A stretch of DNA of 64,000 bases. Origin: Myxococcota bacterium (GTDB taxonomy: Bacteria > Myxococcota_A > UBA796 > UBA2385). Made by a program: the position numbers and the translations under genes. Shown here one piece after another: positions 47,224 to 58,612 of this stretch (its first letter is position 1; the number at the start of each line of letters is the position of its first letter). Where the stretch lies: contig JBIJDH010000008.1 in assembly GCA_044344255.1 (NCBI GenBank), positions 192,001 through 256,000 of the forward strand, given 5' to 3'. The notes under the pieces were generated by a model, which did no database searches, was not told the origin of the DNA, and was given only the letters and a program-made list of their open reading frames with translations.

Positions 47224-47266
47224 TCCCCGCGGCGCCGATCCCCGCGGCGCCGATCCCCGCGGCGCT
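47222..47266. repeat. 15-nt tandem repeat GATCCCCGCGGCGCC x3 between convergent genes
   Basis: Units at 47222, 47237, 47252. Confidence 0.9.
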
Positions 47267-47382
47267 CCGGGGTCCCCCAAACGAGCCCGCCCCTCCACAC
47301 CCCGCCAAGCTTGGCGGAGCGGGAGGGGCGGTCCTTCACCGGCGGAGCCACGCTGGCCCCGCCGGTGAATGAGGCGATCCGA

Positions 47383-48036
47383 TCAGATGCGGATCGAGAG
47401 GCCGGTGCGGAGCCCGATGTTCTGGAGCTTGGCCTCGGTGTCCTTGACCTCGTCGCCATCGAAGAAGAACTTGCCCTTGCCGCCTTCGTAGCTGAGCGAG
47501 GTGTCGATCGAGGCGCGCTTCATGATCTTGTAGCGAACGCCCGCGTCGAGGCCGTACACGGTCCACTTCTGCTGCGTGACCGGGTCGCCCGAGGAGGCGC
47601 GCTCGATGCCCACGTTGACCTGACCGAAGCCGACGAGGGACTCGCCGATCTTCTGGTTGTAGCCGCCGTAGAGCTGGAAGCCGGCGTGGGTGTTGGGGTC
47701 ACCGTCGCCGTCGGTGGCCTTGTTCTCGGGGTCGGACTCAACGCTGTCCGTGAGCTTCGAGTAGGCCAGGAACGCGCCAACCTCGACGTTCTTGGTGGCC
47801 ATGTAGCCAACGCCGAAGCGGGCCGGCTGGTCAAAGAGGGCGAGGCCGGAGGTCTTCGTCTTGGAGGAGACGTCGCTGGAGCCACCCGTGAAGGTGACCG
47901 TCGTCGAGTTGCTGACGAAGATCGGGGTGCTCAGGGACACGCGAACCTTGCCTTCATCGTCCCCACCACCCTTGCCCTTCTTGGCGAACGCAGCGGGAGA
48001 GGCAACGAGGACAGCGAGCAGCAGCAAGCGCTTCAT
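47383..48036 (-). CDS. Outer membrane beta-barrel protein
   Basis: Signal peptide MKRLLLLAVLVASPAAFA. Alternating beta strands. C-terminal LRTGLSIRI. AAGGAG RBS. Confidence 0.75.
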   Translation of the reverse strand: MKRLLLLAVLVASPAAFAKKGKGGGDDEGKVRVSLSTPIFVSNSTTVTFTGGSSDVSSKTKTSGLALFDQPARFGVGYMATKNVEVGAFLAYSKLTDSVESDPENKATDGDGDPNTHAGFQLYGGYNQKIGESLVGFGQVNVGIERASSGDPVTQQKWTVYGLDAGVRYKIMKRASIDTSLSYEGGKGKFFFDGDEVKDTEAKLQNIGLRTGLSIRI

Positions 48037-48347: not shown

Positions 48348-49769
48348 GTGCCCGACTTCCGCAGCTACCTGGAGCTCTCTGAGGAGGGCGGTGGTTCCCA
48401 CAAGTTCTACGAGGTCGTGATCGAGGGCACCACGCTCACGATCCGCTACGGCCGCATCGGCGACAAGGGGCAGTCCCAGGTCAAGGCCTTCCCGAGCTTC
48501 GAGAAGGCCAAGGCAGAGGCGGACAAGAAGATCCGCGAGAAGGCGAGCAAGGGCTACGCCGCCGCGGTGCTGGGGGAGCGTAAGAAGCGCACCGTCACCC
48601 GCCGCGAGGTGGTCTCCCGCCCCTCCACCTCCCGCGCCGCCCCCGTGCTCTGGCAATTCGACTCTGGCAGCGCGGCCTTCGGCGTCTTCGTCGACGCCGG
48701 GCTCTGCTGGGTGGGCAACCAGAAGGGCAACGTCTACGCCCTCGACCACGCGGGCAAGGTCGTCTGCAATTACCAGCTCCCCGACGGCGTGAAGTGCCTC
48801 GTGGCCGACGGAGAGTGGCTCTACGCCGGCTGCGACGACGGCAACGTCTATGACCTCACGAGCAAGGCGCCGCGGGTGGCCTACCGCATCTCCGAGAGCG
48901 TCGACATCCTCTGGATCGACATCAAGGACGGCGTGCTCGGCGTGGGCGACACCGGCGCCCAGATCAGCGTCTTCAACCACGAAGAGGAGACCTGCTGGAC
49001 CCAGAAGCAGCAGGGTGGCTACGGCTGGATGGTGCGCTGCGACGAGATCGGCGTCTACTTCGGCTGCGGGGCCCGGGTGACGATGTACGACTGGCAGGAC
49101 GGCCGCGTCGTCTGGGAGCACGCGCTCGGCGGCGGGGTGCTCTTCGGCTGGCAAGAAGAGAGCGCGGTCTACGCGGCCTGCGGCGACAACCTGATCTACA
49201 AGGTGTCCAAGCGCGGTGAGCGCCTCGCCACCTACCGCTGTGACGCCGGCGTCTTCTCTTGCGCCACCGCCCCCGACGGCGCCTTCGTCTTCGCCGGCGA
49301 CAACAGCTCCTCGATCTACTGCTTCGACGCCGAGGGCAAGCGCCTCTGGAAGGTGGGCACGGGCGCCGGCTCGGCCCTCTCCATGCAGTTCTTCGGCGAT
49401 CGGCTCTTCATCGTCACCTCCGGCGGGGCGCTCTGCTGCCTCGACGTGCGCGCCGAGGCCATCGCCGCCGCCGAGCAGGGCACCGTGCCGGTGATGCTGA
49501 AGATCGCCGCCCCCACGGCACCTGCGGTCCAGGTGAGCACCACCGTCGAGACCACCGCCACCGCCGGCAGCGGCGTCGTGGTGGAGTGTGTCGAGGTCGG
49601 CAGCCAGCTCCGGGTGCGGCCGGTCGGCGCCGGCTTCCACGCCGACTGGTTCGTCCAGTTCCCGAAGGACCTCCGCGTCGTCGGCGCCCGCTACGTGGTG
49701 GCGGAGCTCCGCGAGTCCAGCCGCGGCGGCTTCTACCGGGCCTTCGGCGAGATCAAGAAGCTGGGATGA
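48348..49769 (+). CDS. WGR-domain + PQQ/WD40-like beta-propeller protein (first gene of retron operon)
   Basis: YLEL...SHKFYEV...IRYGRIG..GQ...EKASKGY (WGR). Repeated G.VYALD..G.V.. and G.RLW blades. Stop overlaps the next ATG (ATGA 49766-49769). Confidence 0.85.
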   Translation: MPDFRSYLELSEEGGGSHKFYEVVIEGTTLTIRYGRIGDKGQSQVKAFPSFEKAKAEADKKIREKASKGYAAAVLGERKKRTVTRREVVSRPSTSRAAPVLWQFDSGSAAFGVFVDAGLCWVGNQKGNVYALDHAGKVVCNYQLPDGVKCLVADGEWLYAGCDDGNVYDLTSKAPRVAYRISESVDILWIDIKDGVLGVGDTGAQISVFNHEEETCWTQKQQGGYGWMVRCDEIGVYFGCGARVTMYDWQDGRVVWEHALGGGVLFGWQEESAVYAACGDNLIYKVSKRGERLATYRCDAGVFSCATAPDGAFVFAGDNSSSIYCFDAEGKRLWKVGTGAGSALSMQFFGDRLFIVTSGGALCCLDVRAEAIAAAEQGTVPVMLKIAAPTAPAVQVSTTVETTATAGSGVVVECVEVGSQLRVRPVGAGFHADWFVQFPKDLRVVGARYVVAELRESSRGGFYRAFGEIKKLG

Positions 49770-52700
49770 AGCTCCTCGACCAGCGCATCCTCGTCTGGCG
49801 GGACGGCAGCGTCGACCGCATCCACGAGGTCGACCTGCTCGAGCTCTCCCCCGGGCGGGCCGTCGTCAACTTCCGCTACGGCAAGCGGGGGGGCCCCCTC
49901 CGGGACGGCTCGAAGACCCCGATGCCCGTGCCCCTCGAGCAGGCCCGCGCCCTCTTCCTAAGAGAGATCGCCGCGAAGATCGAGAAGGGCTACGTCGAAG
50001 ACACAAGCGCGGTGCCCGGCGGTGGGGCCGAGCGCCCGCCGCCTTCGACGGCCTCTCCGCCCGCCGCCGCGCCGACGCTGCGGGCCGTTCCGCCTCCCCC
50101 TCCGCCCTCGGGGGCCGGCCCCGAGGGCGCCCTGCTCCGCCGCCTCGCCGAGGGGGAGCGCCCCGCCGCGCCCGCCACCCCCGACCGCCCCGCGACCTTC
50201 CTCCGCGGCTCGGCCGGCATCGTCGCCCGCCAGCGCCGCCGCGTCCGTAAGCCCCGCCCCCTCTACCGGGTGATCGAGCGGGTGGGGGAGCTGCGCCTGG
50301 AGGCGGCGCTGCCCTACCTCTTCGACCTCCTGCCACGCGCCGACGTCCGTCTCGCCTATGTGATCGCGGGGGCCCTCGGGCGGATCGGCGGCCCGGAGGC
50401 CTCCGCGGCGCTCGTCCCCCTGCTCCAGCACGCGGACGAGCCCCTGCGCCGCCGCGCCGTCGAGGCGCTCCGCTTGCACGCCCCGCCCGAGGCGCGGGTG
50501 GGCCTCGCCGAGTCCCGCACCGACCGCCTCCCCGAGCCCCTCCGCGCCGCCGTGAAGAGCCACCGGCCCGAGCGGGTGGCCGACGAGGTCACCGCCCTGC
50601 TCGCGGAGCCCAGCCTCGAGCGGGCCATGCTGCTGGGCGAGCTCTACCTCATCGACAGCGAGGCCGTCCGCCCGGCGCTGCTCGAAGCGGCGCGCACCCT
50701 CCCCCTCCGCCCGCCCTTCCTGCGCGTGCTCCGCCACCTGTTCAAGGCCGCAGAGTACCGCCGCGATCCCGCCCTCTGGGGCACCCTCGCCTGGCGCTTC
50801 GAGACCACCCGCGCCGCCTTCCGGGTCGGCAAGCGGATCGGCAGCGGGCGCTTCGGCGAGCGGGTCGTGAACATCTCGTTGAACGGCGAGCGGAAGACCC
50901 AGGTGATGTCCCGCATCGGCGCCGCCGACAGCGCGCTCGGGTACAGCGACCGCACCCGCAAGTACCTGCGCATCCGCTGCTGGCGCCTGCTGCGCCGGCT
51001 CGGCCAGGATGGCGGCCCTGACTACGTCCGAATGGCCGTCGGCGCCCTCCTGCCCTGGACCGACGCCGACCGCGTCGAGCCCCGCGTCCAGCCCGGCCTC
51101 GAGGCCGCCCCGCCCACCTCGGGCGCGCGGGGTCGCGGGCCGATGCTCTCGGTCCCCTATCCGCTCTTCCACAGCCTCGTTCACGGCAACAGCGGGCGCT
51201 TCCTCCGCTCCAAGCGCGGCAGGATGGCCTGGCTCCCGGCCAACGCTCCGAAGACCGGCATCCCCCGCGAGGAGGCCTTCGCCGAGCTCTGGGACCGCGC
51301 CCCCGCCGGCCTCCTGCATCTCCTCGCCGAGAGCCGCTGTGAGGCGGTGCACGTCTTCGCGGTGCGGGCGCTCCAGGCGAACGCCCCCTTCGTAGACACC
51401 CTCGACAAGGGCGTGGCGCTCATGCTGCTCGAGCGGCCCTACGAGGGGACGGTGGCCCTCGGCCTCAAGGTCGCCCGGCTCCGCTGGCCCCCGCAGGGGG
51501 ATCGTGACCTGCTGCTCGCCGCGGCCCACGCCGCCCACCTCCCGGCCCGCAGCCAGGCCTGGCAGTGGATGAGCCAGTCGCCACACCTGCTCGCGAACGA
51601 CAGCGACGGCATCGCGACCCTCCTCTCCGGGCCTTGGAGCGACACCCGCGCCGTGGCCCGTCAGCAGCTCGACCGGATGGTGCTCGCGCCCGACCTCGCC
51701 CGGGCCCTGGTGGTCCGCCTCGTCTCGAGGCTGTTGCCCCTCCGCGGACCGGCGGCGGCGGACGTGGTCGCCGCCCTCGGGGGCCCGCTCGAATATTCAT
51801 TCGTGACCGTCGGGCTGAGCGTCCTCCGCGATCTCATGGCCCACCCCGAAGAGGCTGTGCAGGCCCTGGTGGCGCGGGTGTTGGCGGCGCGGCCCGCCGA
51901 TCAAGAGGCCGCCCTCGGCCTCCTCCTCCGATCCACCTTCCCGGCCATCCGCGCGACCGCCCTGTCCTGGCTCGACGGGCTCGGCGTCGAGGCGCTGCTC
52001 GCCCGCCCGGGGCTGCTGCTCGCCCTCGCCGCCAGCGCCGACCCCCTCCTCCGCGAGCGCGGCCTGCTGCTCGCCCGTTCGGCCGTCGAGAGCGGCGGGG
52101 GCGACAACGGCGGCGCCGCTGACCTCGCCCTCGCCGCGACCGCGCTCCTGCTCGAACCGCTCCCCGCCGGGGCCCCCACCGGCCTCGTGAGCCTGCTCGA
52201 GGCCCTGCCCGACGCCGCCCTGGCGGACATCCCCGAGGAGCGGCTCCACGAGCTCCTCCGCTCCAAGCGCCCCACCGCCGTCGAGGCCGGCGGCCTCGTC
52301 CTCGGGGCCCTGCCCGCCGATCGAGCCCTCGATCCCGCGCTGTACCAGCTCGTCCACCACGAGGCCCGGCGGGTGCGCGAGGGCCTCCTCCGCGCGCTCC
52401 AGCGCCGCGCCTCCACCCTGTCGGGCGCGCTCGCCGAGCTCACCCCCCTCACCGACTGCCGTTGGCCCGAGAGCCGAGAGGGCCTGTTCGCCCTGCTGCT
52501 GCGCCTCCCCGCCGAGGCCTGGACGGTGGAGCACCTCTCCACCCTGTCCGACTCCAACCGCCCCGACGTACAGCGCTTCGCCGTGCAGATCATCCAGCGG
52601 GCCACCCCGCCCGGCCAGGAGGCGCCCCTGCTCCGCCGCCTCGCCGAGCACCCGAGCCCGCGCATCCAGTCCGTGGCCGTCAGCCTGCTCGAGGGCGTCG

Positions 52701-52987
52701 CCGAGGGGGCCGCCCTCATCCCCGAGCTCGAGCCCTTCTTTCGTGTCCTGCTCGGGCAGATTGGCCGCGCCACCGCAGCGCGCCTGCGGCTGCAGGCCTG
52801 GCTGCTCCGGGCCGCCCTCGAGGAGGAGACCGCCGCCCGCGTCGCCCTCTCGGTGCTCGGCCCCCTCTCCGCCACCACCGCCATCGAAGACCGAGCGCGC
52901 ATCATCGAGGCCCTCGCGGCCCTGCGACGCCGCTGGCCCGCCCTCGAGGGCCCCCTCCGACCCATCCCCGTGGAGCTGCGCGCATGA
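49766..52987 (+). CDS. WGR-like + HEAT/ARM-repeat protein (retron-associated)
   Basis: N-terminal VNFRYGKRG...AKIEKGY. Pro-rich linker. ALGRIGG.EA..AL..LL HEAT repeats. FKAAEYRRD...RFE. LSDSNRPDVQRFA and LAEHPS. ATGA overlaps at both ends. 1073 aa from ATG 49766. Confidence 0.85.
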   Translation: MKLLDQRILVWRDGSVDRIHEVDLLELSPGRAVVNFRYGKRGGPLRDGSKTPMPVPLEQARALFLREIAAKIEKGYVEDTSAVPGGGAERPPPSTASPPAAAPTLRAVPPPPPPSGAGPEGALLRRLAEGERPAAPATPDRPATFLRGSAGIVARQRRRVRKPRPLYRVIERVGELRLEAALPYLFDLLPRADVRLAYVIAGALGRIGGPEASAALVPLLQHADEPLRRRAVEALRLHAPPEARVGLAESRTDRLPEPLRAAVKSHRPERVADEVTALLAEPSLERAMLLGELYLIDSEAVRPALLEAARTLPLRPPFLRVLRHLFKAAEYRRDPALWGTLAWRFETTRAAFRVGKRIGSGRFGERVVNISLNGERKTQVMSRIGAADSALGYSDRTRKYLRIRCWRLLRRLGQDGGPDYVRMAVGALLPWTDADRVEPRVQPGLEAAPPTSGARGRGPMLSVPYPLFHSLVHGNSGRFLRSKRGRMAWLPANAPKTGIPREEAFAELWDRAPAGLLHLLAESRCEAVHVFAVRALQANAPFVDTLDKGVALMLLERPYEGTVALGLKVARLRWPPQGDRDLLLAAAHAAHLPARSQAWQWMSQSPHLLANDSDGIATLLSGPWSDTRAVARQQLDRMVLAPDLARALVVRLVSRLLPLRGPAAADVVAALGGPLEYSFVTVGLSVLRDLMAHPEEAVQALVARVLAARPADQEAALGLLLRSTFPAIRATALSWLDGLGVEALLARPGLLLALAASADPLLRERGLLLARSAVESGGGDNGGAADLALAATALLLEPLPAGAPTGLVSLLEALPDAALADIPEERLHELLRSKRPTAVEAGGLVLGALPADRALDPALYQLVHHEARRVREGLLRALQRRASTLSGALAELTPLTDCRWPESREGLFALLLRLPAEAWTVEHLSTLSDSNRPDVQRFAVQIIQRATPPGQEAPLLRRLAEHPSPRIQSVAVSLLEGVAEGAALIPELEPFFRVLLGQIGRATAARLRLQAWLLRAALEEETAARVALSVLGPLSATTAIEDRARIIEALAALRRRWPALEGPLRPIPVELRA

Positions 52988-54633
52988 TCGTCGAGCACGC
53001 CTATCGGGGCCGGTCCCGGGTGCTGGGCGGGGCCCGGTCCACCTCCCTCTCCTTCGCGCCCGACACGCTGCGCGAGCCCACTCGGCTCGTCGCCGAGCTT
53101 CGCCGCCCCCTGCCCTTTCGCGAGGCGATCAGCGCGCTGCACGACGTGGTGGTCTCGAACCTCCGCTTCGTCCCGAAAGACCGCACCGCCTGGCGCGCCT
53201 GGCTGGCCGAGCAGGGCGACCTCCTCGACTGGCGCGGCATTCACAGCCAGCGCGCTCGGCTCGACGAGCGCATCCGCACCTTACAAGCCGAGCTCCAGGA
53301 GCTCAACCTGCGCCGAGAGGCCCGGGGCCGGACCTGGAAGGACGCCGAGCGAAGGTACTTCAATTATCTGTACGAGCGTGACCGAGACGCCTGGATCGTG
53401 CTCGACCCCGTGATCTCCGTGCACCCCGACGAGGTGCTCTTCGAGTGTTTCTCCGAGGACGAGAGCAGCTATGGCCGCCTGTCGGTGGTCCACGACGAGC
53501 TCGCCCGCGAGGGGGAGGTGGCCTACGGCACCACCAACATCGACTACTCGGCGCCGCTCTATGAAGAATTCCAGAAGATCCGCTCCTACAAGCGCACCCG
53601 CCTGTCGGTAGACCCCCAGGGCCTCGGGGTGCAGCAGGGAGAGGCCGCCGCCTATCGAGAGGAGAAGATCGACCTCCCGGAGAGCTGGGTGCGCGGCTTC
53701 CTCCAGGTGAGCGCCGCGATGGGCATGGAGGCCACGGTCCTCGATCTCCAGCCGATGGACGTCCACGCGCTGCTCTTCGCGCTGCGCCGCCGGCGCGAGA
53801 AGAGGGGCCCCCGCTCGCTCCGCTTCCGCCTGCGGCCGGGGCAGCCGGTGTCGGTGGTGGTCGAGCCCTGGTTCCAGGAGCTGACCTTCCCCCGCAGCCC
53901 ATACACCGGAAACGTCGAGACCGAGGTGCGCCTCTGGGGGCGGCGCCGGCTCTTCATCCTCGAGCGGCTGCTCCCCTGGGCCCGGAGCGTGCGGCTCCAC
54001 CTGCTCGGCACCGGCCTCCCCTCCTTCTGGGAGGTCGACCTCGGCGGGCTCCGCTTCACGCTCGGCCTGTCCGGCTGGACGGCGAATGACTGGTCCCGGG
54101 CCGGGCACTTTGACCTCCTCGCGCCCCGCGGGCGGGTCGACGACAACACGGCCGTGCGCGTGATCGACGCGCTCCGCCGCGCCTGGGTCTCCGACGCCGA
54201 CAGCCTCTCTCGCACCCTCGGCCTCGACCGCCCGACGGTCCTCTCCGCCCTGCTCGGCCTCGCGCAGGCCGGCCGCGCCATCCCCGATCTCGGCACCGAT
54301 CGCTGGCGCGCCCGCGAGCTCACCCGCGAGCCCTTGCCGCTGGCCGCGCTGCGCTTCGCCGACCCCCGCGAGGAGCTGGCCCGCGGTCTCGTCAACAGCC
54401 GCGCCGTGAACATGCGCCGCCCCACGCTGGCCGCGGACGGCAGCCTCGAGGTGGCCGGCACCGTCCGCGGGGAGGAGCGCCTCTACACCGTGAGCCTCGT
54501 CCTCGACGCCGATCAGCGCATCACCGACGGGAGCTGCGGCTGCAGCGCCTTCACCCACAACCGGATGCGGAAGGGGCCCTGCGCCCACATCCTGGCCCTC
54601 CGGATCCGCCACGGACAGGGCGGTGTCGCGTGA
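52984..54633 (+). CDS. Winged-helix + SWIM zinc-finger protein (retron-associated)
   Basis: LDPVISVHPD...FECFSEDESSY, GTTNIDYS, DLPESWVRGFLQV, LGLSGWTANDW. wH-like LGLDRPTVLSAL..L.QAGR. SWIM CGC-x12-CAH at 54535-54588. Confidence 0.88.
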   Translation: MIVEHAYRGRSRVLGGARSTSLSFAPDTLREPTRLVAELRRPLPFREAISALHDVVVSNLRFVPKDRTAWRAWLAEQGDLLDWRGIHSQRARLDERIRTLQAELQELNLRREARGRTWKDAERRYFNYLYERDRDAWIVLDPVISVHPDEVLFECFSEDESSYGRLSVVHDELAREGEVAYGTTNIDYSAPLYEEFQKIRSYKRTRLSVDPQGLGVQQGEAAAYREEKIDLPESWVRGFLQVSAAMGMEATVLDLQPMDVHALLFALRRRREKRGPRSLRFRLRPGQPVSVVVEPWFQELTFPRSPYTGNVETEVRLWGRRRLFILERLLPWARSVRLHLLGTGLPSFWEVDLGGLRFTLGLSGWTANDWSRAGHFDLLAPRGRVDDNTAVRVIDALRRAWVSDADSLSRTLGLDRPTVLSALLGLAQAGRAIPDLGTDRWRARELTREPLPLAALRFADPREELARGLVNSRAVNMRRPTLAADGSLEVAGTVRGEERLYTVSLVLDADQRITDGSCGCSAFTHNRMRKGPCAHILALRIRHGQGGVA

Positions 54634-54661
54634 CGCAGCCCTTCCCAAGCCCACTCCCCCA

Positions 54662-54918
54662 CGATAAGCCACCCCTGCAACCGCGGTCTCTGGCGAGCCT
54701 TGCAACCCGGCCGGCGCTTCGCCGTCCTTGCGACCCGCTTCGTCATGCGTCACTGGCCTGCTCATCACCGGGCGGGGCCACGCCCTGGTGGGGCGGATGC
54801 GGTCTGGCTTCCGAGAAGCCAGGCACGCCCCACCAGGGCCGGCCCCGCTTCAGTCGAGCGAGTCCAGTCCCGAGCCTCCTCGAAGACCCCAGAGACCGCG
54901 GTTGCACCTATCTTATCG
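54662..54918 (+). ncRNA. msr-msd: Retron msr-msd non-coding RNA
   Basis: Perfect 18-bp terminal inverted repeat TGCAACCGCGGTCTCTGG (54676-54693) / CCAGAGACCGCGGTTGCA (54889-54906), extended by CGATAAG/CTTATCG. Short msr hairpin 54709-54727. Long msd hairpin 54752-54868. Lies directly upstream of a retron RT. Confidence 0.88.
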
Positions 54919-54940
54919 CGCCCACCCGCAGGGCCGTCCG

Positions 54941-56515
54941 ATGAGCGAGAGTGAGCGCGAGAGAGCGAGCGAGAGACCCCGCTCCCGGCAAGCGATCTAC
55001 GATCACATCCGAGCCTCGTCCAAGGATGAGTTCATCCGCGAGGACATGGTGCGCCTCGGCTTCTGGCCGAGCCGCGAGCCCCGCCCGAGCGACCCCGCCG
55101 AGGAGCAGCGGCGCCGCGAGGAGATCTTGCGCGAGCTCCGCGCGCTCCAGACCGAGGGCTCCCGCCTCAAGGACGAGGCGAAGCTCAAGGCCGAGGCGCG
55201 GAAGCAGCGCATCGAGGCCAGCCGGGCCAAGCAGCAGGCGAACAAGGCCCGACGCGCCACCGATCGAGCGGCGGCCGCGGAGGCGTGGCGGGCCCGCGGC
55301 GAGTCCGAGCTGCTCTACCTCGGAGCGGGCGCCTCGGCGGGCCTCGGGCCCACCGGCACAGCGGCCACCGGCACAGCGCACCCCTCGCTCCCCGCGTTGG
55401 AGGGGCCCCTGTCGCTCGCCCGCTGGCTCGGCCTCAGCATGGGCCAGCTCCGCTTCCTCGCCTTCCAGCGCACGGTGAGCCGGGTCTCTCACTACGCCCG
55501 CTTCCGCATCCCCAAGAAGACCGGCGGTGACCGCCTCATCTCCGCCCCGATGCCCCGCTTGAAGGCCGTGCAGCACCGCATCGCCACGGCGCTCCTCCGC
55601 GAGGTGCCGGTGCACGAGCGCGCCCACGGCTTCGTGCCCGGCCGCTCGATCACCACCAACGCCGCCCCCCACGTGGGCGCGGCCGTCCTCGTGAACCTCG
55701 ATCTCCAGGACTTCTTCCCCTCGATCCACTGGCGGCGGGTGCGGGGCGTCTTCCGAACGCTCGGGTACTCCGAGGCCGTATCGACGGTGCTGGCGCTGCT
55801 CTGCACCGAGGCCCCCGTGGAGGCCTGGGAGCTCGACGGTCAGCGCTGGTTCGTGCAGACGGGCCCACGGGCGCTGCCCCAAGGTGCGCCCACCTCCCCC
55901 GCGCTCACGAACCTCCTCTGTCGGAGCCTGGACAGACAGTGTGAGAAGCTGGGAGAGCGCCTCGGCTTCACCTACACCCGATACGCCGACGACCTCACCT
56001 TCTCCTCGACCGATCCCGAGGCCCGGGTGGGCGCCCTCCTCTATCGCCTCCGCAAGGACCTCGATCGGCACGGCCTCACCGAGCACCCCAAGAAGACCCG
56101 GGTGCTCCGACAGGGTCGGCGCATGGAGGTGACAGGCCTCATCGTCAATCACAAGCTGGCGGTTCCCCGAGAGGAGCTCCGGCGTTTCCGGGCGGTCCTC
56201 CACAAGATAGACCGCGCCGGGCCCACCGGGGCCGAGTGGCGCCCCGGGATCGAGCTCTGGGCCGGGCTCCGCGGCTTCGCTGGATACGTCTTCATGGTCG
56301 ATCCCGCGCGCGGTCAGACGCTGCGAGACCGGGTCGAAGAATTGGCGGGTCGATACGAGGTGAAGGCGCCCGCGCCCGTGGTGAGGAGCGCCCCTGTCGC
56401 GGCCCCCGTGGTCGCGCCGGTGGTGACGGCGGCTCCAACGGTCACTGCGCCCCTGCCCGAAGTCGCGCCCGCGCCGGAGCCGCCGGCGAAGAAGCCGTGG
56501 TGGAAGCTTTTCTAA
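54941..56515 (+). CDS. Retron-type reverse transcriptase (myxobacterial Mx162/type XIII-like)
   Basis: IPKKTGGDRLISAP, AHGF, region X NAAPH (55658-55672), LDLQDFFPSI, LPQGAPTSP, YADD (55982-55993), region Y VTG (56129-56137). Helical N-terminal extension (SSKDEFIREDMVRLGFWP). Track start 54728 lies inside the ncRNA, so ATG 54941 is preferred. Confidence 0.95.
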   Translation: MSESERERASERPRSRQAIYDHIRASSKDEFIREDMVRLGFWPSREPRPSDPAEEQRRREEILRELRALQTEGSRLKDEAKLKAEARKQRIEASRAKQQANKARRATDRAAAAEAWRARGESELLYLGAGASAGLGPTGTAATGTAHPSLPALEGPLSLARWLGLSMGQLRFLAFQRTVSRVSHYARFRIPKKTGGDRLISAPMPRLKAVQHRIATALLREVPVHERAHGFVPGRSITTNAAPHVGAAVLVNLDLQDFFPSIHWRRVRGVFRTLGYSEAVSTVLALLCTEAPVEAWELDGQRWFVQTGPRALPQGAPTSPALTNLLCRSLDRQCEKLGERLGFTYTRYADDLTFSSTDPEARVGALLYRLRKDLDRHGLTEHPKKTRVLRQGRRMEVTGLIVNHKLAVPREELRRFRAVLHKIDRAGPTGAEWRPGIELWAGLRGFAGYVFMVDPARGQTLRDRVEELAGRYEVKAPAPVVRSAPVAAPVVAPVVTAAPTVTAPLPEVAPAPEPPAKKPWWKLF

Positions 56516-56530
56516 ACGAGACCGGCTTCG

Positions 56531-58612
56531 TCACTCCTCCTCGACGCAGGCCCCCGCGAGGTCCATGTTCCAACCCGCGAAGGGCCGAGCCTGCTTGATG
56601 AAGAGCTGGGGCTCCCCCGGCACGTACTTGTCGTCGAACTTCCAGTCCACCTCGAGGGCGTACCAGTCCCCGTCGCCGCCATAGGCCTCCTGGAAGAAGC
56701 TGTGGATGGAGTCGAGCGCCACACCGAGCTCATAGGCCTCCTCGTTCGTGAGCACCGTCTCCCCCTCCGCGACGAGGGAGCTGTGCTGGATGTAGACGAT
56801 CGGCTGGCCCGGATAATAGAAGTAGTGGAGATAGGCGTCGGGGAGGAGGCCGAGCTCCGGGGTGACCACGTCCTCGCCGCCCACCTGCGCGTTGACATAG
56901 AAGGCAGGCTCGAGGCCGGAGGTGTCATAGGGGTTGTTGGTCAGCGCCACCCCGTTGGACTCCTCCTCCGGGAAATTCGGGTGGACGAGGAGGCCCATCC
57001 CGACGTCGAGGTGGTTCATCGAGTAATAGTCCCGCTCCTCATAGGCGCGGGGGTTCCAGACTTGGGACCACACCTTCTTCACCGCCCACTCGATGGAGTC
57101 CGAGCCGTCGCCTGCGATGTCGGGGTCACCCGTCTCGGAATTGTAGAGGCCGGCGCCGGTGAAGGCACCGAGGTCCTCTGAGTTTGTGCTGGAGCGGAAG
57201 CGGGCGTCCTCCCCCGGAAACATCTCCACGGCCTTGGCGCGGATGAGCTCGACCACCTCGGGGCGCATCGGCATGTCGCGGAGCTCGTCCTTGAAGTCCT
57301 CAAGGGCCTGGGTGCGATAATCGGGATCGGCCCACTCCGGGGAGGCCATCATCTCTTCGATGTGCACCCACAGCCCGTTGTCGGTCATGAACTGGTCGTA
57401 GTAGTACATCGGGATGGCGAAGCCCGGCTGCACCGGGATGGGCGACCCGAGCGCGGCGGCGTCCTCCAGGGCGCCATAGTTGGTGGCCTTGGCCCCGAAG
57501 ATCGGGATGGCGCCCGAGATCGCCTCGCCGAGCGGGAGGGCGTCGAGGTCGAGGATGTCGACGTTGTCGCGCAGGTCGGTGACGCTGAGGTCCATCGGCT
57601 GCACGACGAGGGGCTCGGGGCGGTGGTCCAACCACCAGGCCTCAGCCTCCTCGGCGCTGATCTCCTTGATCTCCCAGTCGAAGGCGCCCACGGTGAGCTC
57701 GACCCACTTGCCCTCGAGGGCCTGGAGCTCCGCCGCCGCCTGTGCGTCTCTCAGGGCCATGTTGGGCGTGCCCCGGTTGACGGACAGCACGTTGATGTGG
57801 GCGAGCGGCGTCTGGAACTGGGCGGTGATGATGCCGGCGACGATCGAGATGTCATTCGGGACCGCGTCGAGGACCACGACCTCCCGATAGGGCGTATAGC
57901 TGCCGTCCACCTCTTCGGCGGTGCGGAAGGAGAGGATGCCGGTGGTGGTGCCGAGGTTGAGCGGCTGATAATCCACTCCGGCGTAGAGCTCATCGGTGGA
58001 GACGAGCTTAACGTCGGCGGGGAGGTCGAGGGCCATCCGCTCCACCGCCTCGCTCGTGGGGTGGAAGCGCAGCTCCTCGCCCATCCAGGCGCTCGCGGCC
58101 ACCCGGCGATAGGCCGCGGCGACCATGTCGGCGCTCGCGGTGTCATAGGGGGATATCTCATAGACCCACAGCCCCGGCCCCTCGTAGCGGGAGACGGCGC
58201 CGAGGAGGAAGCGACGGTCCGGGCTGTAATACTCGGTGGTGTTGAAGGTTCCGAGGTCGGGGACGATGGGGAGGCCGTCCCCCGAGAGGTGGGTCGAGCA
58301 GAAATCCCAGTGGACACAGTACCGTTTCGAGTTCTGAAAATAGAGCGCGTCTCCGTCCAGGCGATCGATGACGGTCTTGACCGAGGTGGCGCCGGGGATG
58401 CTCGAGTCTGCGGGCTCGCTCGACAGGGCGAGGTAGTCTGCCTCACAGCCGAGCTGCTGGGCGAAGTCGGGATCGGCGCCCTCGGGGATGAGGCAGTCCC
58501 AGCCCGGGACGGCGCTGTCATCGGCGGGGGTGGAGCCGCCGCCCTTCGGGCCGGGCGGATCATCCCCACACGCAGAGACAGACAGCACAACCAGGATCGC
58601 GAGACGAGTCAT
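56531..58612 (-). CDS. Lipoprotein with PEP/pyruvate-binding (PPDK N-terminal, ATP-grasp) domain
   Basis: Lipobox VSAC, TPLAHINVL...RGTPN, FGAKATNY, PGFAIP, RFRSSTNSEDL..FTGAGLY, EVDWK, KQARP. GAGG RBS. Confidence 0.85.
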   Translation of the reverse strand: MTRLAILVVLSVSACGDDPPGPKGGGSTPADDSAVPGWDCLIPEGADPDFAQQLGCEADYLALSSEPADSSIPGATSVKTVIDRLDGDALYFQNSKRYCVHWDFCSTHLSGDGLPIVPDLGTFNTTEYYSPDRRFLLGAVSRYEGPGLWVYEISPYDTASADMVAAAYRRVAASAWMGEELRFHPTSEAVERMALDLPADVKLVSTDELYAGVDYQPLNLGTTTGILSFRTAEEVDGSYTPYREVVVLDAVPNDISIVAGIITAQFQTPLAHINVLSVNRGTPNMALRDAQAAAELQALEGKWVELTVGAFDWEIKEISAEEAEAWWLDHRPEPLVVQPMDLSVTDLRDNVDILDLDALPLGEAISGAIPIFGAKATNYGALEDAAALGSPIPVQPGFAIPMYYYDQFMTDNGLWVHIEEMMASPEWADPDYRTQALEDFKDELRDMPMRPEVVELIRAKAVEMFPGEDARFRSSTNSEDLGAFTGAGLYNSETGDPDIAGDGSDSIEWAVKKVWSQVWNPRAYEERDYYSMNHLDVGMGLLVHPNFPEEESNGVALTNNPYDTSGLEPAFYVNAQVGGEDVVTPELGLLPDAYLHYFYYPGQPIVYIQHSSLVAEGETVLTNEEAYELGVALDSIHSFFQEAYGGDGDWYALEVDWKFDDKYVPGEPQLFIKQARPFAGWNMDLAGACVEEE

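Follow-up and report, generated by a model that had tools for sequence, protein, structure and literature searches.

We describe a retron locus in a 64,000-nucleotide stretch of the genome of a Myxococcota bacterium (assembly GCA_044344255.1, contig JBIJDH010000008.1, forward-strand positions 192,001 to 256,000), referred to below as the window. Four co-directional genes and one noncoding RNA (ncRNA) occupy positions 48348-56515 (Table 1). Genes 1 and 2, and likewise genes 2 and 3, are chained by ATGA overlaps located at 49766-49769 and 52984-52987, and a gap of 307 nt (54634-54940) lies between gene 3 and gene 4, which encodes a reverse transcriptase (RT). Both neighbors, a gene at 47383-48033 and a PPDK_N gene that ends at 56531, lie on the minus strand. 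The RT carries the retron signatures NAAPH at residue 240, YADD at 348 and VTG at 397; NAxxH and YADD are described as retron RT motifs in PMC6868368. The gap folds in the manner of a retron RNA (z = -6.3, with none of 100 shuffles equally good). The gene layout, the overlaps, the gap with its retron-like fold, the RT signatures and the opposite-strand flanks had been pointed out in an original prediction made from the letters of the DNA, and all were recovered here. A sigma-70-type promoter was looked for and none was found.

The locus almost certainly belongs to retron type XIII. In a PADLOC check, which the original prediction had proposed, genes 2, 3 and 4 matched the models WGR_XIII (E 5e-209, full length), SWIM_XIII (E 3e-209) and RT_XIII (E 7e-166, 551 bits, the next model reaching 312 bits), the RT being assigned by hidden Markov model alone. 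As described by Mestre et al. 2020 (PMC7736814), type XIII combines a clade-10 RT with a winged-helix (wH) and SWIM partner bearing a DEDE motif, and a WGR-HEAT gene usually precedes that partner; matched by description, gene 2 corresponds to cluster 216 and gene 3 to cluster 114 of that study. With gene 2, gene 3, the ncRNA and the RT all in place, the retron is complete, as had been foreseen. It is not a new system, since genes 2 to 4 and the ncRNA reproduce the published architecture. In a metagenomic sample of 80 SWIM loci, a HEAT gene was present in 67 of the 68 loci with at least 1 kb of upstream sequence and an RT in 45 of the 49 with at least 2.5 kb downstream, which marks the core as a known kind. 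The expected co-occurrence of three partner genes with this RT family thus held for the HEAT and SWIM genes and failed for gene 1, which, among the 47 loci whose flanks were long enough, lay directly upstream in 3 and in the vicinity in another 3. Apart from one optional extra gene, the locus is an ordinary member of type XIII. In the literature searched, which lacked most subscription papers, we found no experimental test of any type XIII system and no tested mechanism for the type, in agreement with the prediction.

Table 1. Genes, domains and RNA elements of the type XIII locus (window coordinates)
Feature	Position	Strand	Remarks
Gene 1	48348-49769	+	473 aa (amino acids), GTG start; WGR aa 6-72, beta-propeller ~aa 100-375, small C-terminal domain ~aa 400-472
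Gene 2	49766-52987	+	1073 aa; WGR fold aa 1-83, then long HEAT/ARM alpha-solenoid
Gene 3, core partner	52984-54633	+	549 aa; modelled clamp fold with coiled-coil insert, then winged helix and SWIM zinc finger
Two-domain sliding-clamp-like fold, aa 32-368	53077-54087	+	From VIA-align, Foldseek and coupling
Insert in first clamp domain, aa 57-141	53152-53406	+	84 residues; mostly one long helix in the model, aa 83-132
Winged helix, aa 384-444	54133-54315	+	Z-alpha-like shape; 4wcg_B, Z 5.3, root-mean-square deviation (rmsd) 1.3 Å, 61 residues
Conserved acidic residues of the clamp part			D141, D149, E154, D159, D187, E226
ncRNA (msr-msd)	54676-54906	+	231 nt, from a1 to a2
a1 arm, priming stem	54676-54693	+	Perfect 18-nt complement of 54889-54906
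CTTGC, family-conserved	54699-54703	+	CTT can pair with AAG at 54883-54885
msr stem-loop	54709-54727	+	8 pairs; 98.8% of cells paired; 5/8 pairs changed on both sides
Predicted msDNA strand	54742-54882	-	~140 nt, single long hairpin; both ends inferred
a2 arm, priming stem	54889-54906	+	Perfect 18-nt inverted repeat with a1
Gene 4, RT	54941-56515	+	524 aa; long N-terminal extension; PADLOC RT_XIII

Our main finding concerns gene 3, which had been read as a wH-SWIM protein. That reading missed the bulk of the gene. In the structure model (predicted local distance difference test score, pLDDT, 75; predicted template-modelling score, pTM, 0.71), gene 3 has a PCNA-like fold followed by a winged helix and a SWIM finger. 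VIA-align superposed residues 35-368 of the model on PCNA (3aix_A) with Z 18.8 and an rmsd of 2.9 Å over 233 residues. The top 38 VIA-align matches were all PCNA, 9-1-1, beta clamps and viral processivity factors (Z 18.8-9.2), the next unrelated structure scoring 7.8, and Foldseek likewise returned clamps in the PDB (E 3e-9) and among viral models. No RNase H-like or transposase fold was among the matches listed by VIA-align, by Foldseek in the PDB or in the viral models. A sequence-profile search of the PDB gave weak matches of the winged helix to wH proteins and no clamp, which leaves the clamp relation unseen at the sequence level in that search; a distant homologue from an RT-free locus has a weak Pfam match to Rad9 (E 0.006). 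The SWIM finger reads C518-x-C520-x12-C533-x-H535 and fits the pattern CxCx12CxH, and its region matches ZSWIM8 with a middling score (Z 7.8).

Residue couplings provided evidence that is independent of structure libraries. In an analysis of 333 sequences (effective number 174), contacts expected across the two clamp domains were prominent, with G164-I325 ranking 9th, A51-F358 12th, V169-R357 26th and G164-F358 46th of 31,135. The strands and helices of gene 3 are named here after what we take to be the topology of PCNA. On that assignment, the family mean net charges of the four clamp helices are +0.3, +1.3, +2.7 and +3.0, the last two belonging to the helices at aa 257-277 and 318-332, which are expected to face DNA and are basic across the family.

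The clamp part also holds a set of conserved acidic residues, all within the stretch that aligns with clamps. Among 89 diverse homologues, D141 is conserved in 79, D149 in 70, E154 in 89, D187 in 73 and E226 in 72. The published pattern, Dx7[D]x4Ex30-32Dx37E, has no strict match in gene 3; five of its residues are present and the last spacing is 38. The statement that no partner shows a recognisable toxin active site had overlooked these residues, for which Mestre et al. proposed the DEDE motif.

The insert in the first clamp domain varies with subtype. Its length is 84-91 residues in the subtype of the window and close relatives, 51-53 in the subtype with a giant HEAT protein and 18-21 in a third, and it is 14 residues in three copies without an RT in the sequence retrieved around them. 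Along the three subtypes the N-terminus of the RT becomes shorter as well (226-240, 197-210 and 126-177 residues), and this parallel shrinking, across three lineages only, hints at a contact between insert and RT.

Gene 2 would serve as the scaffold. Its model is of good quality (pLDDT 86.6), and the fold search returned solenoid matches for the body of the protein. The N-terminus has no Pfam match to WGR; its model superposes on the WGR domains of PARP3 (Z 9.2) and PARP1 (Z 9.1) at an rmsd of about 2 Å over 81 residues, and the PARP1 structures matched, 7s68 and 4dqy, were solved on a double-strand break. A profile of this N-terminus gave a weak match to the WGR domain of the window's own gene 1 (E 0.09) and reached E < 1e-3 with 32 of 120 members of the gene 1 family. 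Gene 1 itself matches WGR in Pfam (E 1.3e-19) along with propeller families, which bears out the two WGR domains of the original prediction. The model and two fold searches of gene 2 yielded solenoids and WGR and no enzyme domain, with residues ~85-600 barely covered.

All parts of a retron RNA, namely the a1/a2 stem, the msr hairpin and the msd hairpin, are present beside the RT. The 18-nt inverted repeat at the locus compares with a longest repeat of 12 nt in 189 shuffles of related gaps, and repeats of at least 11 nt occurred in 39 of 63 SWIM-RT gaps and in 5 of the 189 shuffles. Of these gaps, 55 had a span of 205-270 nt and supplied the material for an alignment (another 6 loci had been set aside because of their gap size); once near-duplicates and poorly delimited spans had been dropped by eye, 42 of 53 distinct spans remained. 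In this alignment 91% of the cells in predicted pairs were paired, as against 66% in shuffled sequences and at most 45% when partners were slid, and 30 of the 35 predicted pairs showed compensatory changes on both sides. TTGC and CGA[AT]G occur together in 47 of the 55 loci. Folded as DNA, the predicted multicopy single-stranded DNA (msDNA) has an energy of -54.6 kcal/mol (z -7.6), which none of 200 shuffles equalled. An Rfam scan of the gap gave no retron match and three chance matches below threshold.

The priming guanosine can be proposed from the sequence. We chose G54702 as the candidate because the CTT before it can pair with the conserved AAG before a2. PMC6868368 places the priming G where the a1/a2 stem ends on its inner side, and the contexts listed there differ from TTGC and include GAGC, which makes G54697, in GAGC, the alternative. 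In one other genome of the collection (L112:6453-19782, G111:C79) two type XIII subtypes stand adjacent and convergent, one of the propeller-HEAT-SWIM-ncRNA-RT form and one of the giant-HEAT form. In the latter the SWIM and RT genes abut, leaving no space for an ncRNA between them.

Gene 1, which the original prediction took for a core part, is an optional accessory, linked to type XIII in this phylum and mostly free elsewhere. It matches no PADLOC model, and its C-terminal domain had no match in the Atlas or among longer proteins. The gene 1 family is widespread, with about 60% identity in cyanobacteria and myxobacteria. In a second type XIII subtype a WD40 propeller is fused to a 2,100-aa HEAT protein, which PADLOC already models, so that a propeller recurs in type XIII in two forms. 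Close to a cyanobacterial-like type XIII locus, a vWA protein (L046:15648-17486) has two copies of the gene 1 C-terminal domain at 41-47% identity. Some cyanobacterial copies of gene 1 have a second, related propeller gene behind them (L004:11563-12795, L012:11564-12838, L149:7474-8706), and on a Calothrix plasmid the two adjoin a RecD/TraA helicase.

It is possible, but on the whole doubtful, that gene 1 is an independent WGR gene that came to lie near type XIII through shared lineage history and has no part in the complex. When gene 1 was used as the query, 24 of 28 homologue loci had no type XIII gene and 4 had one. One of the 7 carriers among 150 other cyanobacterial genomes has SWIM_XIII, on a different contig (Fisher p 0.42), and 5 of 10 carriers checked genome-wide had no SWIM_XIII match. 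Against independence, gene 1 was found in 6 of 250 other genomes of the phylum and all six have SWIM_XIII, which 30 of the 250 have overall, although these kin are not independent. Four of the six show the gene order of the window, with short or overlapping junctions. Gene 1 also adjoins the RT in other arrangements (L001, L003, L084) and lies a few kb off in two loci (L046, L085), and on the SWIM tree the window's SWIM is separate from eight other cases with gene 1 upstream, though on a long branch.

Two WGR domains, a clamp fold, a winged helix, a zinc finger and, at some loci, a ligase mean that every recognisable domain points at DNA structure. The nucleic-acid-sensing complex of the original prediction is accordingly kept as a likely nucleic-acid-binding complex, without gene 1 as a core part. 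The reading we favor, while giving it somewhat less than even weight, is that the locus encodes a guard complex, gated by msDNA, whose targets are DNA ends or forks. The RT would copy the ncRNA into the hairpin msDNA of about 140 nt, whose duplex and RNA-DNA junction may resemble a primer or nick junction. RT and msDNA would keep both the clamp protein and the WGR-HEAT scaffold in an inactive state, possibly by way of the N-terminal extension of the RT and the coiled-coil insert. A phage nuclease or replication protein might then alter the msDNA, or broken DNA might out-compete it for the WGR domains. The freed clamp protein could grip DNA ends or forks and block or process them, and replication would stop. 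Gene 1 may contribute one more, optional WGR sensor and with it a propeller on a protein of its own. Within the first clamp domain, the conserved acidic residues would be the sole candidate catalytic site; such a site on a clamp scaffold is possible, and we count it within the guard reading.

Distribution speaks for a guard. SWIM_XIII was found in 30 of the 250 genomes of the phylum and not in the other 220, and there are several subtypes per genome; patchiness of this kind is usual for conflict systems. Retrons characterized with their effectors are anti-phage systems. Among the control genomes, that of Bacteroides thetaiotaomicron has matches to SWIM_XIII and RT_XIII (the RT passes 1e-60 and does not pass 1e-100), which may make this species a tractable native host.

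A number of results weigh against the guard reading, and each of its steps (trigger, binding and toxicity) is putative. The anti-phage role in the original prediction had been assumed, and genomic context gives it little support. A clear defence neighbor was found at 1 of 31 loci, at most 2, a count based on heuristic gene calls without a matched control. The scan behind it covered 141 flanking proteins (143 open reading frames were picked and 2 overlapped the RT itself), among which a Wadjet pair at L042 was clear, a cysteine desulfurase at L062 was ambiguous and the rest were generic or type XIII. None of the 34 other window proteins scanned is a defence gene, a kinase and a sigma-54 activator being all that was noted. 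Codon use of the locus is host-like (0.66-0.83, window median 0.71). The SWIM gene was found in none of 50,697 phages, with one 30-residue match in IMG/VR, and on 24 of 72,556 plasmids, mostly large, 21 of them non-mobilizable. In three cyanobacterial chromosomes SWIM and RT lie 0.28, 0.56 and 3.4 Mb apart, which would be unusual for a toxin-antitoxin cassette; these three are among the 11 cyanobacterial genomes, of 12 in which the SWIM match was strong, where RT_XIII was found. This phylum, cyanobacteria and Streptomyces also have SWIM relatives that are paired with DUF6493 genes and have no RT close by, so a clamp-plus-partner pair exists outside retrons too. The trend in insert length reflects three lineages, with start codons picked by eye. 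Finally, the PCNA-type inter-subunit strand pair ranks 569 at best among the couplings, a low-power test of a ring because a hairpin within the fold itself ranks only 426.

Several of these observations would suit a domesticated module for DNA breaks or replication stress, in which WGR finds nicks or ends, the clamp holds them, sealing falls to a ligase and the msDNA serves as a stored mimic of a substrate, as a regulator or as a splint. We consider this alternative, the main rival of the guard reading, unlikely on present evidence. The few defence neighbors, host-like codons, rare mobility and split but retained genes would all fit, as would the vertical inheritance reported, and the domestication raised, for type XIII in PMC7736814. 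The most direct argument is an ATP-dependent DNA ligase with a SWIM-like motif at its N-terminus (by eye) and a C-terminal WGR (a Pfam match in L126). In five loci (L017, L019, L049, L057, L111) this SWIM-ligase-WGR gene immediately precedes gene 1, and in L126, of a different subtype, it lies downstream of the RT in company with a small WGR gene. The ligase is also encoded in the window's own genome, unlinked (G000:C78:20506-21855, L127) and about 3 kb from a methylpurine-DNA glycosylase gene. On the other side, the ligase occurs in at least 14 of the 250 other genomes of the phylum and stands beside type XIII in 2 of them. On the SWIM tree, four of the five loci with the ligase upstream fall together in a single clade (99% support), the fifth having no SWIM on its contig, which reduces the linkage to about two independent events. 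Type XIII was also not found in the 220 genomes mentioned above, and no clamp loader was seen in the loci, no search having been aimed at loaders. Slightly less probable again is the broader proposal that type XIII as a whole is a bacterial DNA-break machine (PCNA-like clamp, PARP-like WGR, HEAT and sometimes ligase) to which the retron was added as regulator or substrate mimic, rather than a toxin cassette.

The clamp fold might also be a decoy or docking surface for proteins with clamp-binding motifs, through which the complex senses or poisons the replisome without encircling DNA. We regard this as improbable. It would account for a clamp-like fold in which the low-power coupling test found no inter-subunit signal, and the HEAT, propeller and SWIM parts offer many interaction surfaces. 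Herpesvirus processivity factors, which share the fold, are not known to form closed rings. The interdomain linker forms a peptide pocket in PCNA; in gene 3 the linker at that position (aa 233-246) is modelled as a helix, and the conserved basic helices, together with the winged helix and the WGR domains, suggest that nucleic acid is what is bound. Very improbable, finally, is the published reading of gene 3 as a derivative of a DDE/Mutator-type transposase, a nuclease with a DEDE site: D141, D149, E154, D187 and E226 are conserved and come close to the motif of PMC7736814, but all of them lie inside the stretch that superposes on PCNA, the last spacing departs from the required 37, and a PCNA-like fold argues against such an origin.

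The surroundings yielded further observations. In four near-identical loci (L060, L061, L063, L067) a vWA-CoxE gene and a second SWIM-motif gene directly precede the type XIII HEAT gene. Elsewhere in the window's genome a WGR-DUF4132 gene stands with a 1,609-aa neighbor (G000:C14, L128:969-7149), and another with MoxR-like AAA, DUF5682, vWA-CoxE and a SWIM-motif protein (G000:C83, L129:1716-11826). The SWIM protein of this second cluster was considered as a relative of gene 3 and rejected, the zinc finger alone being shared (probability 2.9%). At ~47225-47300 of the window, a short tandem repeat with units about five amino acids long lies in shadow open reading frames between two convergent genes.

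Myxobacterial msDNA was first seen in 1984, and type XIII includes the first retrons discovered. Should the DNA-break machine be real, bacteria would have a second, PCNA-like clamp lineage and myxobacterial msDNA a function. Relative to the literature searched, the clamp fold of the SWIM partner, the optional gene 1 and the ligase at some loci are new. That literature contained no link of retrons or of these SWIM proteins to a clamp, and the words propeller, WD40, ligase, clamp and PCNA are absent from the main text of PMC7736814. The value of the analysis lies more in reinterpreting the core partner of type XIII than in this locus. In place of the one hint in print, a transposase-derived nuclease, the clamp fold offers concrete features open to test: the oligomer state, the basic helices, the acidic residues and the coiled-coil insert. 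Given the WGR and ligase links, assays of DNA damage matter no less than phage challenge. A recent survey ranked type XIII third in abundance, with 143 of 1,286 candidates (PMC13712802).

Among known systems, the sliding clamps are the nearest in fold. Gene 3 shares with PCNA, 9-1-1, beta clamps, UL42, UL44 and gp45 the two-domain fold (about 233 residues at 2.9 Å) and, on the helix assignment used here, basic helices, and it is closer to PCNA (Z 17-19) than to the bacterial beta clamp (Z 12-15). It differs from sliding clamps in its 6-13% identity, the 84-residue insert, the helical linker and the fused wH and SWIM, and in that a loader is unseen at the locus. With PARP1 and PARP3 the locus shares WGR: the gene 2 N-terminus fits theirs at about 2 Å and gene 1 matches the Pfam family. 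Unlike those enzymes, it has no PARP catalytic domain, and break binding by its WGR domains is putative.

A second comparison is with pairs of a SWIM-finger protein and DUF6493, DUF7824 or DUF7825 in Actinomycetota, Myxococcota and cyanobacteria, which combine a homologous clamp-wH-SWIM protein with a large partner. PADLOC SWIM_XIII matched DUF-paired SWIM homologues at E 2e-52 and 1e-43. These loci differ in that the RT is not nearby, the insert is short or absent and the partner gene is downstream; no paper naming the three DUF families was found in the literature searched. Six loci of our collection (L137, L138, L139, L150, L153, L154) have a SWIM-clamp homologue and a large downstream gene, of the DUF6493 family in five, with the RT not nearby.

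The closest relatives are the type XIII retrons themselves, whose members named in PMC7736814 include Retron-Mxa1/Mx162, Mxa2/Mx65, Sau1/Sa163 and Nex2/Ne144 and for which PADLOC holds the models RT_XIII, SWIM_XIII, WGR_XIII and HEAT-ARM_XIII. The locus has in common with them the WGR-HEAT and wH-SWIM proteins, the ncRNA, an RT with a long N-terminus, the same motifs and host-like codons. It differs from published type XIII in its extra WGR-propeller gene, translationally coupled upstream and without a PADLOC model. The SWIM partner, for which the main text of PMC7736814 suggests a transposase origin, is by the present model a clamp.

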